Shown here: positions 30,034 through 56,217 of the stretch, piece after piece
Layout: every line of letters begins with the position of its first letter
How positions within the stretch are numbered: the stretch's first letter is position 1
From: a virus
Lineage: Duplodnaviria > Heunggongvirae > Uroviricota > Caudoviricetes
Direction: 5' to 3' (one strand)
IMG/VR virus record: IMGVR_UViG_3300028797_000097
Length of the DNA stretch: 64,000 nt
Translations under genes and position numbers: made by a program
Notes under the pieces: model-generated
Database searches by the model: none
What the model saw: only the letters and a program-made list of their open reading frames with translations
Told to the model about the DNA's origin: nothing

Positions 30034-30414
30034 TTATTCCTTAATATGTAATAACATTGTTTCAGGGACATTATAGACTATATATCCTGGTGGATTAGTT
30101 TTATTTCCCTTAATAATTTTTAGTGTAAATAAATTTATACTATTTATTGGATCTGACTGACCAATTATTTGATAAATACATTCATCGCCATTTACATTAC
30201 TTGTAACTTTATCATTTACTTCAAATGGACGATATGTTTCTTCAATTTCTACCCCATTAGTAGATTTTTCAATATTTTCGGAATTTATAGTTTTTGCATT
30301 CTTAACGGCAACAGTAAGATCACGTGCAATCCATTCAGGACAGTTCTTACTACTTACTACTTTTTTAATTCCATTTAATAAAATATTTAGTTGTTCTTTA
30401 CGTATATCTTCCAT
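30034..30414 (-). CDS. Hypothetical protein
   Basis: 126 aa ORF; C-terminal SH3-like beta pattern. Confidence 0.5.
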   Translation of the reverse strand: MEDIRKEQLNILLNGIKKVVSSKNCPEWIARDLTVAVKNAKTINSENIEKSTNGVEIEETYRPFEVNDKVTSNVNGDECIYQIIGQSDPINSINLFTLKIIKGNKTNPPGYIVYNVPETMLLHIKE

Positions 30415-31001
30415 TAGTCACTACTCAAATTGTCTTCATCTTTAAATAATATCTTTAGAATATGAAGCTCCTTTTTAAACTTCTGTAAACAGTCAGATAT
30501 TGTTTTGTCAAAGTCATTAAGATGAGTACTAATTTGTCTTGCGACACGGCCCGCACTAGCAGCTCTGGTTGGCGGATAGTTATATGATTCAAAGCCCTTC
30601 ATGAAATCTGCACTTGGTTTTGATAAATCAGGAAGTTCTTTCTTAAAAATTTTTGCATAAAGTGTCCAACATGCATTTTCGAAACTTTCGATAGTATTAG
30701 CAAGTTCGACGCCTTCACGTAATTTACGTTTTTTCTTCTTTTTCTTCTTTTTCTTTGGAATCTGATTTAACCAATATCCAGGGTGATGAGCATCAGGAAC
30801 GCCTTTATAAAGTGGATTAACACTAAATGGAGAGCGTTGATATAATAATCCCATACGTTGAGGACAGCAACCTTTGCAGTCACCGCCATGTGGAATACCT
30901 TGATCAGCACCAAGCGGAGCACCAACACCGATTCCAAAATCCTCGTCTAAAACCTTATATCCGTTTTTCTTAAGAACTTCTACAGCTTCTTCTAAAGTCA
31001 T
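30414..31001 (-). CDS. Putative head protein carrying a copy of the major capsid protein N-arm and a poly-Lys tract
   Basis: EDFGIGVGAPLGADQGIPHGGDCKG vs gp23 EDFTQGVGAPLGLDQGIPHGGDAKG; KKKKKKKKKRK tract. Confidence 0.7.
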   Translation of the reverse strand: MTLEEAVEVLKKNGYKVLDEDFGIGVGAPLGADQGIPHGGDCKGCCPQRMGLLYQRSPFSVNPLYKGVPDAHHPGYWLNQIPKKKKKKKKKRKLREGVELANTIESFENACWTLYAKIFKKELPDLSKPSADFMKGFESYNYPPTRAASAGRVARQISTHLNDFDKTISDCLQKFKKELHILKILFKDEDNLSSD

Positions 31002-31007
31002 AAAAAC

Positions 31008-31502
31008 CTAGCTAATCTTTAAATTATACTTATTATTTATATCAGTTACGTAAGAATTCCATTTATTTCCATGCGCATAGTTCTCTAAATACAGAATTTT
31101 ATTGAATAAATCTGTATTTTCTTTATTATATGCATCAAAAGCTGCAGCGATTTCGCCACCAGTAAGTTCAAGGAATATCTTATAATGTAACATTTCATGA
31201 AGCATTGTTCTTTCTAAAGCTTCATAAGGTCTTTTATGAGTTTTGGAGATTTCAATCCTTGGATTCTTTAAAATTTTATTTTCAAAGTCAATATCAAATT
31301 TGAAATAACCATTGACTTCAGAACTATCGATGATATTGACTGGAATTTTAATCAAAGAATTATCAAAATACATGTTATTACATGCATCAAAAATTTTGCT
31401 TAAATATTTTTCAGTCAATTCAAAATGTTTACTAAAAAGATTCATAATCTCGCCATGATGATTTAAGGAAATCTGTTCTATCCTTTGTAAATGTTTTGCC
31501 AT
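31008..31502 (-). CDS. SprT-like zinc metalloprotease domain protein
   Basis: FDACNNMYF, IEISK, TMLHEMLH, AHGNKW; true start may be the internal Met of MNLFSK. Confidence 0.7.
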   Translation of the reverse strand: MAKHLQRIEQISLNHHGEIMNLFSKHFELTEKYLSKIFDACNNMYFDNSLIKIPVNIIDSSEVNGYFKFDIDFENKILKNPRIEISKTHKRPYEALERTMLHEMLHYKIFLELTGGEIAAAFDAYNKENTDLFNKILYLENYAHGNKWNSYVTDINNKYNLKIS

Positions 31503-31695
31503 TAACGGTTACAGTTACAGTTCTCGAAGTAGATTCTACAACTTGAACTTTTACTGGACAACATGCTTTTACTTCAGGAATTTTTGTCCAATAATAGTAA
31601 CCATCTACTATATTAAACCCATACTTTTCTTTTTCGCTCTGATATAATCGTTCACATTCTGGACAACGTGGTTTTGGCGGAGGTGGAAAAAACAT
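31432..31695 (-). CDS. Small Cys-containing hypothetical protein
   Basis: 87 aa, CPEC and CC; coupled to neighbours. Confidence 0.5.
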   Translation of the reverse strand: MFFPPPPKPRCPECERLYQSEKEKYGFNIVDGYYYWTKIPEVKACCPVKVQVVESTSRTVTVTVNGKTFTKDRTDFLKSSWRDYESF

Positions 31696-31696
31696 A

Positions 31697-32236
31697 TTAA
31701 TGCTTCCTTAATATAGTGTCTAACTCACTGTTTAACTGTCTGACAACATATTGTTTAGAGATTATCTCGGAATTTAAAAGATAGTTTTGAATTCTCTTAT
31801 CTTTATATAAACCTTTAATCCAGTTGACAGAAGATAAACAATACATTTTTGGACGTAACCATTCTCTAAGCTTGAACATTAATAAATCAAGATTAGAAAT
31901 TGCGTTATGTTCTTCCTGGGTTTTCGGATTTCTTATCAATTTTCCATTACGGTCAATAAGACCTAATTTATAAGCCTTTGTTGTCGTTGGAATAGTTGTA
32001 ATAGATTTAAGAAAAACAAAAACAAGAACATTATCAATGTCCCTATTATGTGTACTTAGGTTTATTTTCTTATTATGAGTTTTTAAAGAATATAGTGTTT
32101 CACGTGCTTCTGTTAATATTCCATTTGCTTCAAAATAAGCAGACATGGTTTCGGCATTGTTTACTAAACGCTGTAAACCAGAAACACTATTTTTATCTTC
32201 TAAGGCGTAAAAAAATCTTTCCCAGAGTTTTTCCAT
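31697..32236 (-). CDS. Conserved T4-superfamily hypothetical protein
   Basis: TKAYKLGLIDRNGKLIR...LDLLMFKLREWL pattern; late promoter 32241-32248. Confidence 0.6.
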   Translation of the reverse strand: MEKLWERFFYALEDKNSVSGLQRLVNNAETMSAYFEANGILTEARETLYSLKTHNKKINLSTHNRDIDNVLVFVFLKSITTIPTTTKAYKLGLIDRNGKLIRNPKTQEEHNAISNLDLLMFKLREWLRPKMYCLSSVNWIKGLYKDKRIQNYLLNSEIISKQYVVRQLNSELDTILRKH

Positions 32237-32251
32237 ACAATATTTATAGCT

Positions 32252-33112
32252 TTAATGACACCATTCAGTCTCATTGATAGAATTTCCATCATCGATTATT
32301 TCATCACAATTATAATGATATGAACAAGATTCTTGTTTAGGTCTATACATTCTTTGTGTTCCTAAATATGGATCTTGTTGTGTAGAAGATGAAATTTCTG
32401 TTTTAACTTCCATCGGTGTTCCGTCAATATCTGCACCTTGTTTAGTACTTTTTACAGTTTTATGAGTAATCGGGTCAGTTCTGACGTCACCAAAACTTTT
32501 CTTAGATTCTGATTTCAAAAAATTGTTATATTTCTCAGAAATAGAATCTGCAATCTTCTTCATCATACTTCTAATATTTAACATATTATGAAGTTTTGTA
32601 TTTGGGTCATCTTTTAAAGTTCTTTGATGAGCAATCATACATGTAGAATCACTACAGTATTTTTCATAACCTCTAATAACACTTATGAACGTCGTTTCTT
32701 TATGACATGTTGGACAATATCCTTCATCTTCTTTTCTGACATAAGTATCATAATAGAGTTTTGGATTATAGATATTATGCTCTTTTTTCAAGTGATTATT
32801 AAACTTTTTTGATGCCGCATTAGCAGAATCGGCAGAAATCATCATATCACAGATTTCACACTTTAATTCTGTATATTCTTGTTGTTTTGGCGCTTTATTA
32901 CTACAAGTTGTAGAACAATATTCTGCATAACCTTTATTTAAACCATTATAAGTGGTCGGTTTTCCACAGATTTTACAGATTCCTTCACCTTCTTTCTTAA
33001 GAAACTTGTCATAATACTCTTGCATGCCCAATTTATGGTCATTTTTGATATGAAGAGCAAAAGACATAGCGTCTTCATAGGTTCTTCCACATATTTTACA
33101 TTCGTAACTCAT
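32252..33112 (-). CDS. Tandem zinc-finger repeat protein
   Basis: Two units of CxxC...HxxxxH...YYDxxxxxExxGxCxxC...GYxxYCSxxC. Confidence 0.7.
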   Translation of the reverse strand: MSYECKICGRTYEDAMSFALHIKNDHKLGMQEYYDKFLKKEGEGICKICGKPTTYNGLNKGYAEYCSTTCSNKAPKQQEYTELKCEICDMMISADSANAASKKFNNHLKKEHNIYNPKLYYDTYVRKEDEGYCPTCHKETTFISVIRGYEKYCSDSTCMIAHQRTLKDDPNTKLHNMLNIRSMMKKIADSISEKYNNFLKSESKKSFGDVRTDPITHKTVKSTKQGADIDGTPMEVKTEISSSTQQDPYLGTQRMYRPKQESCSYHYNCDEIIDDGNSINETEWCH

Positions 33113-49062: not shown

Positions 49063-50040
49063 ATGGATAAAATTCTTGAAACCCTTTCCCAAAAATTCTC
49101 AGCAGAAGAATTGAATGAGGTCAAAAAGGCTATTGAATTCACTGTTGATGAAAAGGTAAAGGCAAAGTCTGAACAAGAAGCCAAGATGATTGCCAAGAAA
49201 GCTGATGAATTTTGTCAGAAGAAGATTAAGGAAGCTGTTGAAAAGAAGACTGCCGAAATCGAAGAAATTGCTAACAAGTTCTGCGAAGAACGTTGTGAAA
49301 AGTTGAGCAAGGAAGCCGATGCAAAGGTTGAATCTTATAAGAAGAAACTCGAAGAAGCTTCAGAACAGTATATCCTTGAATATTTCGATGAGAAGTTCAC
49401 AGAAAAGTACGGGCAAGAACTCGAAGCTATCGAAGAAAAAGTTATTACAGGCTTGGATAAGTATCTTGAATATAACATCAATGAAAAGATTGGTCCGGAA
49501 ATGATTCAGAAGACTGCATTGCAAGAAACCTGTCAGCCGATTGTTGAAGAGTTCATTCACATTCTTGAAGACAGATATGTTGCACCTAACACCACTGGTT
49601 CTAAGAGAATCCGCGAATTGAAGGCAGAAAATGCTGAAGTCCGTGCATCTCTCCAGAAGCAGCTCGATGAAAACATGCGTCTCGCTGAATTGGTCGAAAG
49701 CACTGGTAAGAAGTCTTTGATTTCTGAAAAGGTTGCTGACCTCTCTGCAGATCAACGTCTCAAGGTTCGTAAGTTCTTCAAGGAAAAGAGCTTGAATGAA
49801 ACTAAGAAGGATATTGATGCTTATATCGAAATGATCCAAGAACAAGCTGACTCTATCAACGCTATGCGTTATGAAAGAGAACAATTGTTTGAAAGTCATG
49901 AAAAGCCGGTTCGCAAGTCTCGCTATGTCGAAGACCGCACGAACGAAACTATCACTGAAAAGTTTAAACCAAAACGCCGTGAATTGAGCGCTCGCGAACG
50001 CATGATGCTTGGTTCCGCTAACCTAATTGATGAAAATTAA
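49063..50040 (+). CDS. gp22: Prohead core scaffold (T4 gp22)
   Basis: Coiled coil, IKEAVE...LDKYLEY...FKEKSLNE, directly upstream of gp23. Confidence 0.85.
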   Translation: MDKILETLSQKFSAEELNEVKKAIEFTVDEKVKAKSEQEAKMIAKKADEFCQKKIKEAVEKKTAEIEEIANKFCEERCEKLSKEADAKVESYKKKLEEASEQYILEYFDEKFTEKYGQELEAIEEKVITGLDKYLEYNINEKIGPEMIQKTALQETCQPIVEEFIHILEDRYVAPNTTGSKRIRELKAENAEVRASLQKQLDENMRLAELVESTGKKSLISEKVADLSADQRLKVRKFFKEKSLNETKKDIDAYIEMIQEQADSINAMRYEREQLFESHEKPVRKSRYVEDRTNETITEKFKPKRRELSARERMMLGSANLIDEN

Positions 50041-50127: not shown

Positions 50128-51447
50128 ATGAAGATTACAAAGACACAAGCCGGTATGATGGAACGCTGGGGCAAGGCTCCAGGCGGACTTTCAGTCGCTG
50201 GCATTAAGGACAATCTTGTCCGTTATAATACTGCACGTCTTTTGGAAAACCAGCAGACTAAGAACCTCGGTTCTGAACTCTTGACTGAAGATTTTACTCA
50301 GGGCGTAGGTGCTCCACTTGGTCTTGACCAGGGTATTCCACACGGTGGTGACGCAAAGGGTGTTTTCGCACCGATTTCTTTGGCACTTGTCCGTCGTGTT
50401 TTCCCACAGCTTTTCGCTAACGTCCTCGTTGGTGTTCAGCCATTGACTGGTCCTGTCGGTCTTGCTTTCGCACTCCGTTACATTTATAAGACCAATAACC
50501 CGAACGAACTCGTTGAAGCCGCATGGAAGGCAGTTCCTCGCTTCTCTGGTTATACCGGTTCTACCGCTAACACAGATGGCGAATGGGATGCTGGTACTGG
50601 TGTTGATACTCAGTCTGCTGAAGGCTGGAAGATCACTGGTCCGACCTTCGGTTCTGATGACCCGTCTGTAAGCCGTAAGATGCCAGAACTTGGTCTTATG
50701 CTCAGCCGTCAGTCTATCGTTGCTAAGACCCGTAAGCTCGCTGCTAGCTTCTCTCTCGAATCTGCAGCTGATATCAAGGCTATGCAGGGTATCGAAATGA
50801 TGACTGAAATGATCAACGTTCTCCAGCAGGAAATGACTGCAGAAATGGACCGTGAAACAATCGGCCGCTGCAAGAGCCTCTGTACTCCACGTGTTTACAA
50901 CAAGGCTGATCAGACCCTCGCTAACAACGATTCCTTCATTGGTACAAACTCTCAGGAACGTTTCGGTCTCATCATCACTCACATCATGAAGGGTGTTAAC
51001 GACATTCGTACCGCTACTCGTCGTGGTGCTGCTAACATTGCAGTCGTCTCCCCAGACGTTGCTACTGTTCTTCAGGTTGCTAACCCATGGTTCACCAAGG
51101 TTGCTCATGAAGTTAACGGTTCTGCAGTTACTCCGGAAATGGGTACTCTTAACGGTGTTGTTAAGGTCTTCTGTGACCAGTATGCTGTTGACGAATTCGG
51201 TGCAAACGACAACGGTGAAGTTCTCTTAGCATTCAAGGGCTCTAGCCTCTATGATGCAGGTGTTATCTTCTGCCCATACGTTACCGGTGTTGTCAATCAG
51301 GCTATCGATCCTAACGACTTCTCTCCAAGAGTCGGTATCATGAGCCGTTATGGTTTCGCACACAACATGCTTGGTGCTGAAAACTATTATCGCTTGCTCA
51401 AGTTCAACGGACTCTTCGCAGACGCTCCAGAGTCTCTCGTTTGGTAA
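50128..51447 (+). CDS. gp23: Major capsid protein (T4 gp23)
   Basis: LVRRVFPQLFA...GVQPLTGPVGLAFALRY, AKTRKLAA, FCPY, GIMSRYG; late promoter 50070-50077. Confidence 0.97.
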   Translation: MKITKTQAGMMERWGKAPGGLSVAGIKDNLVRYNTARLLENQQTKNLGSELLTEDFTQGVGAPLGLDQGIPHGGDAKGVFAPISLALVRRVFPQLFANVLVGVQPLTGPVGLAFALRYIYKTNNPNELVEAAWKAVPRFSGYTGSTANTDGEWDAGTGVDTQSAEGWKITGPTFGSDDPSVSRKMPELGLMLSRQSIVAKTRKLAASFSLESAADIKAMQGIEMMTEMINVLQQEMTAEMDRETIGRCKSLCTPRVYNKADQTLANNDSFIGTNSQERFGLIITHIMKGVNDIRTATRRGAANIAVVSPDVATVLQVANPWFTKVAHEVNGSAVTPEMGTLNGVVKVFCDQYAVDEFGANDNGEVLLAFKGSSLYDAGVIFCPYVTGVVNQAIDPNDFSPRVGIMSRYGFAHNMLGAENYYRLLKFNGLFADAPESLVW

Positions 51448-53042: not shown

Positions 53043-53696
53043 TTATCGTCTATTTCTATGATAAGCAGACTGTCTAGTACCTGCTGCTAAGTCCATGTTA
53101 GAACCACCGAACATAGCGCCTTGTAATACAAAAAGAACTGCAGTTGAATTTTTTGCAGCTTGAATTCTGGCACTTAATGTCTTGTAATACTTATCACCAG
53201 TTACTTCGCGAGCCTTTTCAAGAAATTCTGCCTTTGCAACATCAAGACCGACTTCATCAGCAAGCTTTGTAAAGTAACCGTCTTTAATATAATCTGCACA
53301 AAGTTGAGAAAGCGGAGTTCCTTCAGCAGTTCCGAAACCTTCATCTAATGTCATATTTTCGTCTAAAGTCATGCCTTCTAAGTCGAGGTCATCTTCTAAA
53401 GCTTCGTCAACTTTGTCTTTCTTCTTTGCCCAGAAAGGAACAAAATCGGATTTCTTACCTTTCTTCTTACCTTTCTTTTTCTTGCCACCACAACCGCAGC
53501 AACCTTCATCAAGTTCATCATCGTCTTCAATTTCTTCGTCTTCACGAATTAATTGATAACCTGCTTCTTCGGCAATACGCTTTGCCTCTTCGAGCTCTTC
53601 ACGAGCAACACGTTGACGGAAAGATTCGCCTTCTGAATTCTTGACGACGTGATAACCTTTACCTTCTACAATTTTTTTAGCTTCTAAAAATGTCAT
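53043..53696 (-). CDS. Putative prohead core/internal protein with two EAxxI..GY motifs
   Basis: Acidic, Cys-cluster and Lys tracts; several LDE sites; divergent from gp21. Confidence 0.6.
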   Translation of the reverse strand: MTFLEAKKIVEGKGYHVVKNSEGESFRQRVAREELEEAKRIAEEAGYQLIREDEEIEDDDELDEGCCGCGGKKKKGKKKGKKSDFVPFWAKKKDKVDEALEDDLDLEGMTLDENMTLDEGFGTAEGTPLSQLCADYIKDGYFTKLADEVGLDVAKAEFLEKAREVTGDKYYKTLSARIQAAKNSTAVLFVLQGAMFGGSNMDLAAGTRQSAYHRNRR

Positions 53697-53800: not shown

Positions 53801-54466
53801 ATGGAAGCTAAAAAGTTATTAAATGAAGCTGCTATTGCCGAATCAAAGATTCTTAATGAAGAAACTAACGGCGTAAAGCACATGTATATTTCTGGTCCTT
53901 TCCTTCAGGCTGTAGATACTAACAGAAACGGGCGTATCTATTCTAGGGAAATTATTGAAAGAGAAGTTAATAAGTTCCAGGGTCTTATTGAATCTCGTGA
54001 AGCTGTTGGTGAACTTTCTCACCCAGAATCAATCGAAATTAACCCAGACCGTGCAGCAATCTTGATTACTGAATTAAAGATGGATGGTAATCTTGCAATC
54101 GGTAAGGCTAAGGTTCTTACTACCCCATGTGGAAAGATTCTCGAATCTCTTTTGAATGATGGCGTTCGTATGGGTGTTTCCTCTCGTGGAACTGGTAACT
54201 TGACTGAAGGTAACATGGTTGCAGATGACTATTCTCTTGCAACAATCGATGCGGTTTATATGCCATCTGCTCAGGTTGCTTATGCTGATGCAATGTATGA
54301 ATCTGTCCAATATGCATCTAAGTGGGTTCTTAATGAAGCAACTGGTCTCTATATTGAAAAGAGAGAAAAGGTTGACGAAGCTACTAAGGCATTCAATAAG
54401 AAGGTTGACGATATTGGTTCTAAGATTATCGTTGAAGCCTTTAAGGATTGGTTAAAGGCAATCTAA
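53801..54466 (+). CDS. gp21: Prohead protease (T4 gp21)
   Basis: NRNGRIY, AVGELSHP, GVSSRGTG, IDAVYMPSA. Confidence 0.95.
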   Translation: MEAKKLLNEAAIAESKILNEETNGVKHMYISGPFLQAVDTNRNGRIYSREIIEREVNKFQGLIESREAVGELSHPESIEINPDRAAILITELKMDGNLAIGKAKVLTTPCGKILESLLNDGVRMGVSSRGTGNLTEGNMVADDYSLATIDAVYMPSAQVAYADAMYESVQYASKWVLNEATGLYIEKREKVDEATKAFNKKVDDIGSKIIVEAFKDWLKAI

Positions 54467-55662: not shown

Positions 55663-56217
55663 TTAATATAATGGACCGCGGCCGCGTTGCATGTTGTTGA
55701 AACTTTGCATTGCCATATCGTCGAGGAATTCATCAGCTTCTTCAGGACCATATTCGTAAGATTCGTCGTCATTTTCAATATCGAAATCATCAATATCATT
55801 ATAGACTTCATTATCTGGAATATTGTTCGGATCAGTTTCCCATTCAATATAACCCTGGAAATTGCAACGTTCGCAACCTTCACCACCGCAATCAGGACAG
55901 ATATTTACTTCTTGGTCATCACAACATTCTCTATGATCAGCTGAGCAACAGTCATCACCATCACAGTTGAGTCCGCATTCCTTCAAAAGATAATCTTGGA
56001 ATTTCTTGGAATCAAAAACCGGATGCTTGCCAGAATACTTCTTAGATTCCTTAACAAAACGTAAACCGTTTGCATTAACGATTCGCTTTGCTTCAGCAAG
56101 CTTTTCTTCTGGGGTCATTTCTTTTTCTTTTGATTCAGAAACTTGCTTCTTGTCAGTCTTTCTAACAAGATGATAGCCATTCTTCTGAACAATCTTAACT
56201 GCGTCTTCAAATTTCAT
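55663..56217 (-). CDS. Cys-rich putative head protein with two EAxxI..G[YL] motifs
   Basis: MKFEDAVKIVQKNGY, LAEAKRIVNANGL, CPDCGGEGCERC. Confidence 0.6.
   Translation of the reverse strand: MKFEDAVKIVQKNGYHLVRKTDKKQVSESKEKEMTPEEKLAEAKRIVNANGLRFVKESKKYSGKHPVFDSKKFQDYLLKECGLNCDGDDCCSADHRECCDDQEVNICPDCGGEGCERCNFQGYIEWETDPNNIPDNEVYNDIDDFDIENDDESYEYGPEEADEFLDDMAMQSFNNMQRGRGPLY

Follow-up and report, generated by a model that had tools for sequence, protein, structure and literature searches.

A small gene of a 416-kb T4-like rumen phage carries a copy of the capsid protein N-fist and looks like a counterpart of T4 gene 61.1

Why would a small gene of a tailed phage carry a near-identical copy of one short element of the phage's own major capsid protein (MCP)? 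The open reading frame (ORF) that raises this question lies in the window, the 64,000-nucleotide stretch of DNA that we analyzed, which is part of a complete 415,750-bp IMG/VR phage genome (416 kb) with terminal repeats. The phage is T4-like and inhabits the guts of cattle and sheep, being present in bovine and sheep gut metagenomes from more than 10 studies. Head and tail genes lie within 20 kb of the small gene, and the copy and its source sit among the following features:

30414..31001, minus strand: the whole small ORF, 195 aa, predicted precursor of a capsid-arm mimic peptide
49063..50040, plus strand: gp22-like scaffolding protein, preceding the MCP gene (Pfam T4_CASP, 5e-7)
50128..51447, plus strand: MCP of the gp23 family, 439 aa (Pfam Gp23, 5.5e-69; matches the PDB chains of T4 gp23)
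50290..50367, plus strand: predicted N-fist of the MCP, residues 55-80, directly after the predicted maturation site LLTE54/D55
53801..54466, plus strand: prohead protease of the T4 gp21 family (Pfam Peptidase_S77, 98.7 bits, E 6.9e-29, above the cut-off)

The scaffold protein contains 23 [LIVM]xE sites and has 72 acidic versus 62 basic residues, and the Peptidase_S77 match corresponds to positions 89821-90297 of the whole genome (G000). The near-complete genomes G000, G011, and G017 each have one MCP gene and one gene for the small protein's module. Across the whole of G000, we observed a single full-length Gp23-family gene and no obvious gp24-type vertex paralogue, along with three short partial Gp23 matches at 148199-148426, 149401-149739, and 232984-233103.

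The copied segment of the capsid protein

The initial annotation of this locus had reported that ORF residues 20-44 match MCP residues 54-78 at 21 of 25 positions, with nine of the identical residues using different synonymous codons, and a codon-by-codon recount returned exactly these numbers. Nucleotide identity over the segment is 55/75 (73%). Since 9 of the 21 shared residues are written with different codons, it is the peptide rather than the DNA that is conserved, as had been proposed, and with these synonymous differences recent gene conversion is ruled out here. A BLASTP comparison of the two proteins gave 27/49 identities (E 4e-13; residues 11-58 vs 45-93), with the similarity beginning 9 residues before E20, and found no other significant segment. 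The next best 25-mer among all ORFs of the 415,750-bp genome reaches 9/25 and is glycine-rich low complexity, while a fuzzy motif scan and a module HMM run over the genome recovered two copies only (E 7.7e-24 and 1.5e-16). Judged by these comparisons, the match greatly exceeds what chance would give. No Pfam match was obtained for the small ORF, which is not a member of the Gp23 family (PF07068): its MCP likeness is confined to residues 11-58, and its AF2 model shows a disordered N-part and a four-helix bundle, not an HK97-type fold.

Both matching segments begin directly after an L-x-E tripeptide, VLDE/DF in the small protein and LLTE/DF in the MCP (the slash marks the predicted cut), which had initially been read as a protease-type site. 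We set the register by counting back without gaps from the VRRxxP motif shared with T4 gp23, using a HMMER alignment and the N-termini of six Straboviridae. At an ungapped offset of 11, L52-T53-E54/D55 of the MCP falls on L63-T64-E65/A66 of T4 gp23, where E65/A66 is the known gp21 maturation site; the 456-aa chains of mature T4 gp23 in the PDB are consistent with a cut at this position. This register, along with the gp21-type protease gene in the window, bears out the reading of the tripeptide as a protease-type site. Since E54/D55 falls on T4 E65/A66, the copied 25-26 residues would be the counterpart of the N-fist, which comprises residues 66-91 of T4 gp23 (PMC7136217). By this alignment, the copied segment coincides exactly with the mobile element at the N-terminus of the mature capsid protein, and it is 84% identical to the phage's own N-fist. 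Before expansion, the T4 N-fist is inside the head, disordered, and probably against the scaffold, and after expansion it lies on the outer capsid surface, with contacts within and between capsomers and at the Soc site (PMC9546572). Docking of the copy on the inner capsid wall, as first suggested, is therefore not the obvious reading.

Layout of the precursor, its leader, and its promoter motif

The copy is one element of a longer predicted precursor. The initial annotation had placed the unit at 30870..31001, which covers codons 1-44, and the whole unit spans 30414..31001 with the following parts:

31034..31041, minus strand: TATAAATA, T4-type late-promoter motif, 33 nt upstream of the ATG at 31001
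30942..31001, minus strand: N-terminal leader ending VLDE, residues 1-20 (leader HMM E 2e-11; E20 invariant)
30864..30941, minus strand: copy of the MCP N-fist, residues 21-46 (BLASTP, codon comparison, and module HMM)
30756..30863, minus strand: conserved Cys/His-rich linker, residues 47-82 (36 aa)
30723..30755, minus strand: basic tract, residues 83-93, nine K then R then K
30714..30722, minus strand: LRE, residues 94-96, predicted second prohead-protease site (E96 invariant in 21 homologues)
30417..30713, minus strand: variable C-terminal four-helix domain, residues 97-195, possible cargo (AF2)

When 21 full-length homologues (down to 48% identity) were aligned, E20 and E96 were invariant and residues 21-84 nearly all invariant, including C45, P47, Q48, R56, S57, P58, H72, H73, P74, W77, Q80, and P82, and in the C-terminal 99 residues G151 was the sole invariant residue. 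At its start, the linker bears a weak likeness to the MCP N-arm that extends as far as the VRRxxP motif (BLASTP to residue 58 of the ORF and 93 of the MCP). AF2 assigned residues 19-68 a pLDDT below 50, and the N-fist copy is probably unstructured on its own. Residues 97-192 were modeled as a four-helix bundle with a pLDDT of ~90 (helices 97-119, 127-138, 146-162, and 168-192). Foldseek searches with the AF2 model of the ORF against BFVD and PDB returned generic helical bundles only, all with E >0.07, and ESM Atlas searches with this C-domain and with the N-domain of a neighboring gene described below gave no lead.

Cuts after E20 and E96 would free a 76-aa peptide with 16 basic and 5 acidic residues and a pI of ~10. 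It had been suggested that processing would leave the small protein with an exposed N-arm followed by a Lys tract. The N-fist copy and the basic tract both stand, but the second invariant [LIVM]xE (LRE, E96) after the basic tract makes the predicted product a free 76-aa peptide and not a whole protein with an arm. The codons of the basic tract are a mixed, alternating series of AAG and AAA with no A-run longer than 6, so the tract is not a homopolymer artifact, and this alternation suggests avoidance of slippery homopolymers.

A leader HMM matched ~23 ORFs of the genome, always at residue 1, and 19 of these 23 have an [LIVM]xE at residues 17-22; the remaining ~22 leader-bearing ORFs lack the N-fist module. 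Two leader-bearing ORFs, at 53043..53696 (minus strand) and 55663..56217 (minus strand), flank the prohead protease gene at 53801..54466, which fits a head-related role of the leader family. In T4, the internal proteins IPI, IPII, and IPIII are described as having a short shared N-terminal propeptide that ends in [LI]xE and is removed by gp21 (Mullaney and Black 1996, as reviewed in PMC9026906 and PMC3012670). The window leader is similar in that it is common to ~23 otherwise differing ORFs of one phage, and, as in substrates that bear a capsid targeting sequence (CTS), this shared propeptide ends in [LI]xE and a gp21-family protease (Peptidase_S77) is encoded. Unlike the T4 propeptide, however, the window leader is 20 aa long and different in sequence, the internal proteins have no capsid-protein copy, and targeting by the leader is putative.

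The TATAAATA octamer, the T4 late-promoter motif, occurs 39 times in the window versus 13 copies expected from shuffles. Copies also stand ahead of the genes for the scaffold (49012), the MCP (50070), and the protease (53766), and among 21 distinct loci related to that of the small gene, 8 have one at -35 to -42. The small gene is covered by contigs from RNA libraries of two studies, a kind of record that cannot show transcription, strand, or ends.

Relatives of the module and the link to T4 gene 61.1

A protein database search returned 91 relatives of the small protein, with full-length homologues down to 48% identity, and a degenerate DNA pattern for DQGIPxGGD picked out 117 IMG/VR stretches in which MCP genes and small module genes are mixed. 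Exact peptide patterns had no match in IMG/VR, and tblastn with the ORF and with its first 75 residues gave no meaningful match in 50,697 phage records. Among the 89 distinct non-MCP module sequences, P1 of the junction is E in all (89/89), and P3 is L (64), I (13), V (7), or M (5); this junction [LIVM]xE could have been kept merely because it belongs to the gp23 stretch that was copied. Over P'1-P'21, the consensus of 64 modules is almost identical to that of 15 MCPs. Further along, the modules differ from the MCPs in having Cys/Gly for Ala/Ser/Gly at P'22, Cys/Val for Val-Phe at P'25-26, and Arg-Met for Ile/Val-Ser at P'29-30. The N-fist copy is followed by a basic run in 86/89 modules, and the three that lack it look like broken MCP fragments. 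While 29 modules end within 12 residues of the basic tract, 53 of the 57 that continue have a second [LIVM]xE no more than 12 aa past it, compared to a chance level of 18% in random 12-residue windows from this genome's ORFs; the other four fit neither pattern strictly. Since this second cut site lies outside the gp23 copy, it is the strongest argument that real processing is selected.

Module-bearing proteins are 67-335 aa long and have an N-terminal extension, a different C-terminal domain, or nothing outside the module. Several orthologues in the clade lack a recognizable leader, and the C-terminal domain is replaced by an unrelated domain or is absent in positional orthologues, as in the 142-aa (P0027; L142) and 95-aa (L140) forms. 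A first impression was of a mobile module, which is countered by a single gene order, traced by tblastn, in most of the ~37 loci that are long enough: a 179-aa gene, an 87-aa Cys-rich gene, sometimes a SprT-like gene, the module gene, and a 126-aa gene. This shared order indicates that the module genes are positional orthologues with a conserved core and fast-changing flanks. Two of these neighbors in the window are:

31697..32236, minus strand: 179-aa gene, homologue of the N-domain of long-form gp61.1 (PHROG 2086; phrog_2086 3.4e-7, phrog_18642 3.7e-9)
31432..31695, minus strand: 87-aa Cys-rich ORF (CPEC ... CCP), conserved between the N-domain and module genes in most related loci

Directly upstream of the module gene is a 164-aa ORF (31008..31502, minus strand) with a weak, below-cut-off SprT-like Pfam match (5.5e-5) and a HEMLH metalloprotease-type motif, found only in loci with the long module form. 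Upstream of the N-domain gene, a 286-aa ORF (32252..33112, minus strand) has a C2H2 zinc-finger-like start and a weak PHROG 'homing endonuclease' match (2.7e-6), and its stable synteny in many loci makes it not mobile-looking. The N-domain protein itself has a confident predicted fold (pLDDT 82), for which searches against PDB and AFDB clusters found nothing below E 0.6. A complex prediction of this protein with ORF residues 1-96 (score 0.11, mark 0.32) was uninformative either way. We also observed a TATAAATA motif at 32241..32248 (minus strand) that ends 4 nt before the annotated ATG (32236) of the N-domain ORF, which may have its true start at a downstream Met or be read from a nearly leaderless transcript.

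The initial annotation knew of no described capsid-arm mimic of this kind. This does not hold, since the same layout is found in T4 gene 61.1 and its ~1,400 relatives among sequenced phages; the gp61.1 gene family is already known, and the window holds an elaborated form of it in giant rumen phages. T4 gp61.1 has 54 aa, and the start pattern in its first ten residues occurs at only three sites in the T4 genome, namely, 61.1, ipII, and ipIII. The first 10 residues of IPIII are an experimentally defined CTS that is sufficient for head targeting (PMC9026906). When the T4 genome was searched with gp61.1, gp23 was matched over residues 3-40 (E 1.4e-5, 45% identity), and T4 gp61.1 has an acidic tail after its basic cluster. 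The gp61.1 family occurs in 1,433 phage records, some of them auto-labeled 'major capsid (domain) protein', which indicates that the likeness has been noticed by machines and not interpreted. Long forms (Miller, Ac42, and Vibrio phage V07; PHROG 2086) consist of a ~105-aa N-domain, [LIVM]xE, an N-fist copy, and a basic tail, with no recognizable CTS-like leader. In the literature on the function of gp61.1 or gene 61.1, we found passing mentions only and no functional paper, and a mass-spectrometry paper on T4 heads does not mention 61.1.

Compared with T4, 44RR2.8t, Ac42, Miller, V07, and GoldenSnicker, the window ORF shows the layout of the gp61.1 family, having an [LIVM]xE, a copy of its own gp23 N-fist, and a basic cluster. 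The order of elements is the same as in gp61.1, both in the 54-aa form (PHROG 1823) and in the long form of ~150-166 aa (PHROG 2086), which are annotated as hypothetical. Direct sequence comparison gave no such likeness. In hmmscan searches against PHROGs with E up to 10, the ORF, its first 75 residues, and three relatives matched neither 1823 nor 2086, and BLASTP of the window ORF against T4 gp61.1 aligned only the six residues QIPKKK (E 8.2). Since there is no direct sequence match, homology to gp61.1 rests on layout and gene linkage. The linkage comes from the 179-aa ORF at 31697..32236, which BLASTP matched to long-form gp61.1 (3e-9 for Miller, 4e-9 for Ac42). Miller, Ac42, and V07 carry the PHROG 2086 N-domain and the module in a single fused protein, and here the N-domain is encoded separately, two genes upstream. 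The N-domain gene likewise precedes the module gene in most of the ~37 related loci that reach that far. T4 gp61.2, considered as a relative of the N-domain gene, proved to be unrelated. On these grounds, the window ORF looks like the counterpart of gp61.1 in 400-kb rumen phages.

The two forms also differ. Unlike gp61.1, the window ORF has a 36-aa Cys/His linker, a much longer Lys run, a second cut site, and the four-helix domain; its N-domain is a separate gene; and it has its own late-promoter motif and does not lie beside primase or helicase genes. In T4, 44RR2.8t, Ac42, Miller, and V07, gene 61.1 is found just upstream of the primase gene, and no primase or helicase Pfam match was found among the window neighbors, so the adjacency to genes 61 and 41 is missing here. 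In turn, no TATAAATA was found upstream of gene 61.1 in T4 and four other Straboviridae, where the gene lies among replication genes.

Agreement of the copy with its own capsid protein, and possible roles of the peptide

We then compared the N-fist copies of both groups with MCP N-fists in a score matrix, in which each lineage's small protein matches only its own lineage's MCP. Against MCP N-fists from Straboviridae, the gp61.1 copies of that family reach scores of 55-90, as compared with 17-20 against the window MCP; the window module reaches 108 with its own MCP and 14-23 with other MCPs. If the two groups share ancestry, the copy would have followed its own MCP through almost complete sequence turnover, which could reflect co-evolution or re-copying. 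Such lineage-wise matching argues for a conserved, specific interaction in head maturation. Within the clade, nine pairs of module and MCP from the same record agree at P'24 (G or A) in 9/9 and at P'12 (L or A) in 8/9, with the window as the exception, although only two clades stand behind the nine pairs, so that this amounts to one independent contrast. Within Straboviridae, the gp61.1 copy did not favor its own MCP over the MCP of a fellow member. Co-variation of the motif with gp23, which the initial annotation had put forward for checking, is thus seen as matching between lineages, with one contrast in the clade and none within Straboviridae.

Our main reading, to which we give a probability of roughly 0.55, is that the ORF is this clade's version of the gp61.1 family: a small late precursor that is packaged in the prohead, cut by the protease, and yields a basic N-fist-mimic peptide that engages the N-fist's partner. 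As we envisage it, the precursor would enter the prohead as a small late-expressed protein, and a gp21-type prohead protease would cut after E20 and E96, removing the 20-aa leader and releasing two pieces, a strongly basic 76-aa peptide (pI ~10) and the variable four-helix domain. The peptide would carry the N-fist copy at its start and the 11-residue basic tract at its end. Candidate partners of the copy are the N-fist socket that lies between capsomers and the scaffold core with which the gp23 N-terminus is in contact before expansion. The basic cluster recurs throughout the family, and the basic tail may bind DNA or acidic scaffold. Since the copy is kept matched to its own MCP, it most likely engages the partner of the real N-fist; packaging into the head, cleavage, and the binding partner are inferred. 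The T4 internal proteins are cut without any capsid copy. In addition, gp21 is reported to need few determinants beyond a short motif (PMC9026906). Together, these two points suggest that the N-fist copy serves something beyond protease recognition. The main reading is weakened by the position of 61.1 in the T4 early region and by the long forms that lack the leader.

A bolder version, which we regard as conceivable but unlikely, takes gp61.1-type peptides as a universal structural part of T4-like heads. Here, once the protease has freed the peptide, the N-fist copy and the arm-like linker would take the path of the missing gp23 arm into vacant N-fist sockets by the portal or vertices, with the basic tail inside on the DNA. 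Co-evolution with the capsid protein would then be required, and the enlargement of the peptide in giant phages (the long Lys run and the Cys/His linker) would serve to anchor or neutralize the 416-kb genome. The copy corresponds position for position to the N-fist of mature T4 gp23, with weak similarity into the N-arm up to VRRxxP, but is detached from any capsid fold. Adenovirus mu (from pre-protein X) and protein VII are small, very basic peptides that are freed in the capsid by the maturation protease and associate with DNA. They offer a functional analogy only, being unrelated in sequence and lineage and showing no capsid-protein mimicry.

T4 head assembly is among the best-studied assembly pathways, and a gene of ~1,400 sequenced T4-like phages copies the N-terminal element of the capsid protein with no function described in the literature that we searched. 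The window adds an elaborated form with a split N-domain operon and a second cleavage site, and it supplies a case from a deep lineage where an entirely different N-fist sequence is matched by the copy, extending the arrangement far beyond Straboviridae and into 400-kb rumen phages. A packaged peptide would add a new class to the head components and offer a natural handle for loading cargo, and a decoy would amount to a new regulator of maturation. Whether this is a widespread, overlooked head-assembly peptide is a question that is directly testable in T4.

Such a decoy might act in the cytoplasm or on the prohead surface, competing with gp23 for the protease, the scaffold, or another factor as a timer of maturation, and it need not be stable in the virion. 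A regulator of this kind would fit with the copy spanning the cleavage site itself, with the likeness starting 9 residues upstream of E20, and it sits well with T4 61.1 being in an early/middle gene cluster without a late-promoter motif and with the long gp61.1 forms having no CTS-like leader. We nevertheless consider it unlikely, since a second [LIVM]xE outside the gp23 copy, kept in 53/57, fits real processing better than mimicry, and the late-promoter motif and shared leader of the window phage point to co-assembly with head proteins. Quite unlikely, in our estimate, is that the module is an extended targeting and processing tag, a kind of 'super-CTS' that loads the neighboring domain (residues 97-195) for injection, with the freed peptide doing nothing further itself. 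What is attached to the module varies greatly and may be N- or C-terminal, as with T4 internal-protein cargoes, and the leader family marks many unrelated proteins. However, many orthologues are cargo-free (the 95-aa form, the 67-78-aa forms, and the 54-aa gp61.1 of T4), the other ~22 leader-bearing ORFs manage without the module, and the module is by far the most conserved part of the protein, unlike a disposable tag.

Two further explanations concern the origin of the gene. An independent partial duplication of gene 23 in this clade, unrelated to gp61.1 and convergent in layout, would be in keeping with our finding no sequence similarity to gp61.1 or its PHROGs and with a genomic neighborhood in which primase and helicase were not seen. 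We judge it improbable, since the same N-domain family is linked to the module in both lineages, as the PHROG 2086 fusion and as an operon here, and this is unlikely to be a coincidence. The chance that the ORF is a non-functional leftover of a gene 23 fragment or a recombination patch is negligible. The local copy is the sole point in its favor, and against it are 89 distinct variants with an invariant core, synonymous divergence at 9/21 codons with a nucleotide identity of only 73%, and a gene that is preceded by a promoter motif of its own and keeps its place in most of the ~37 loci, a pattern of conservation that effectively refutes it.
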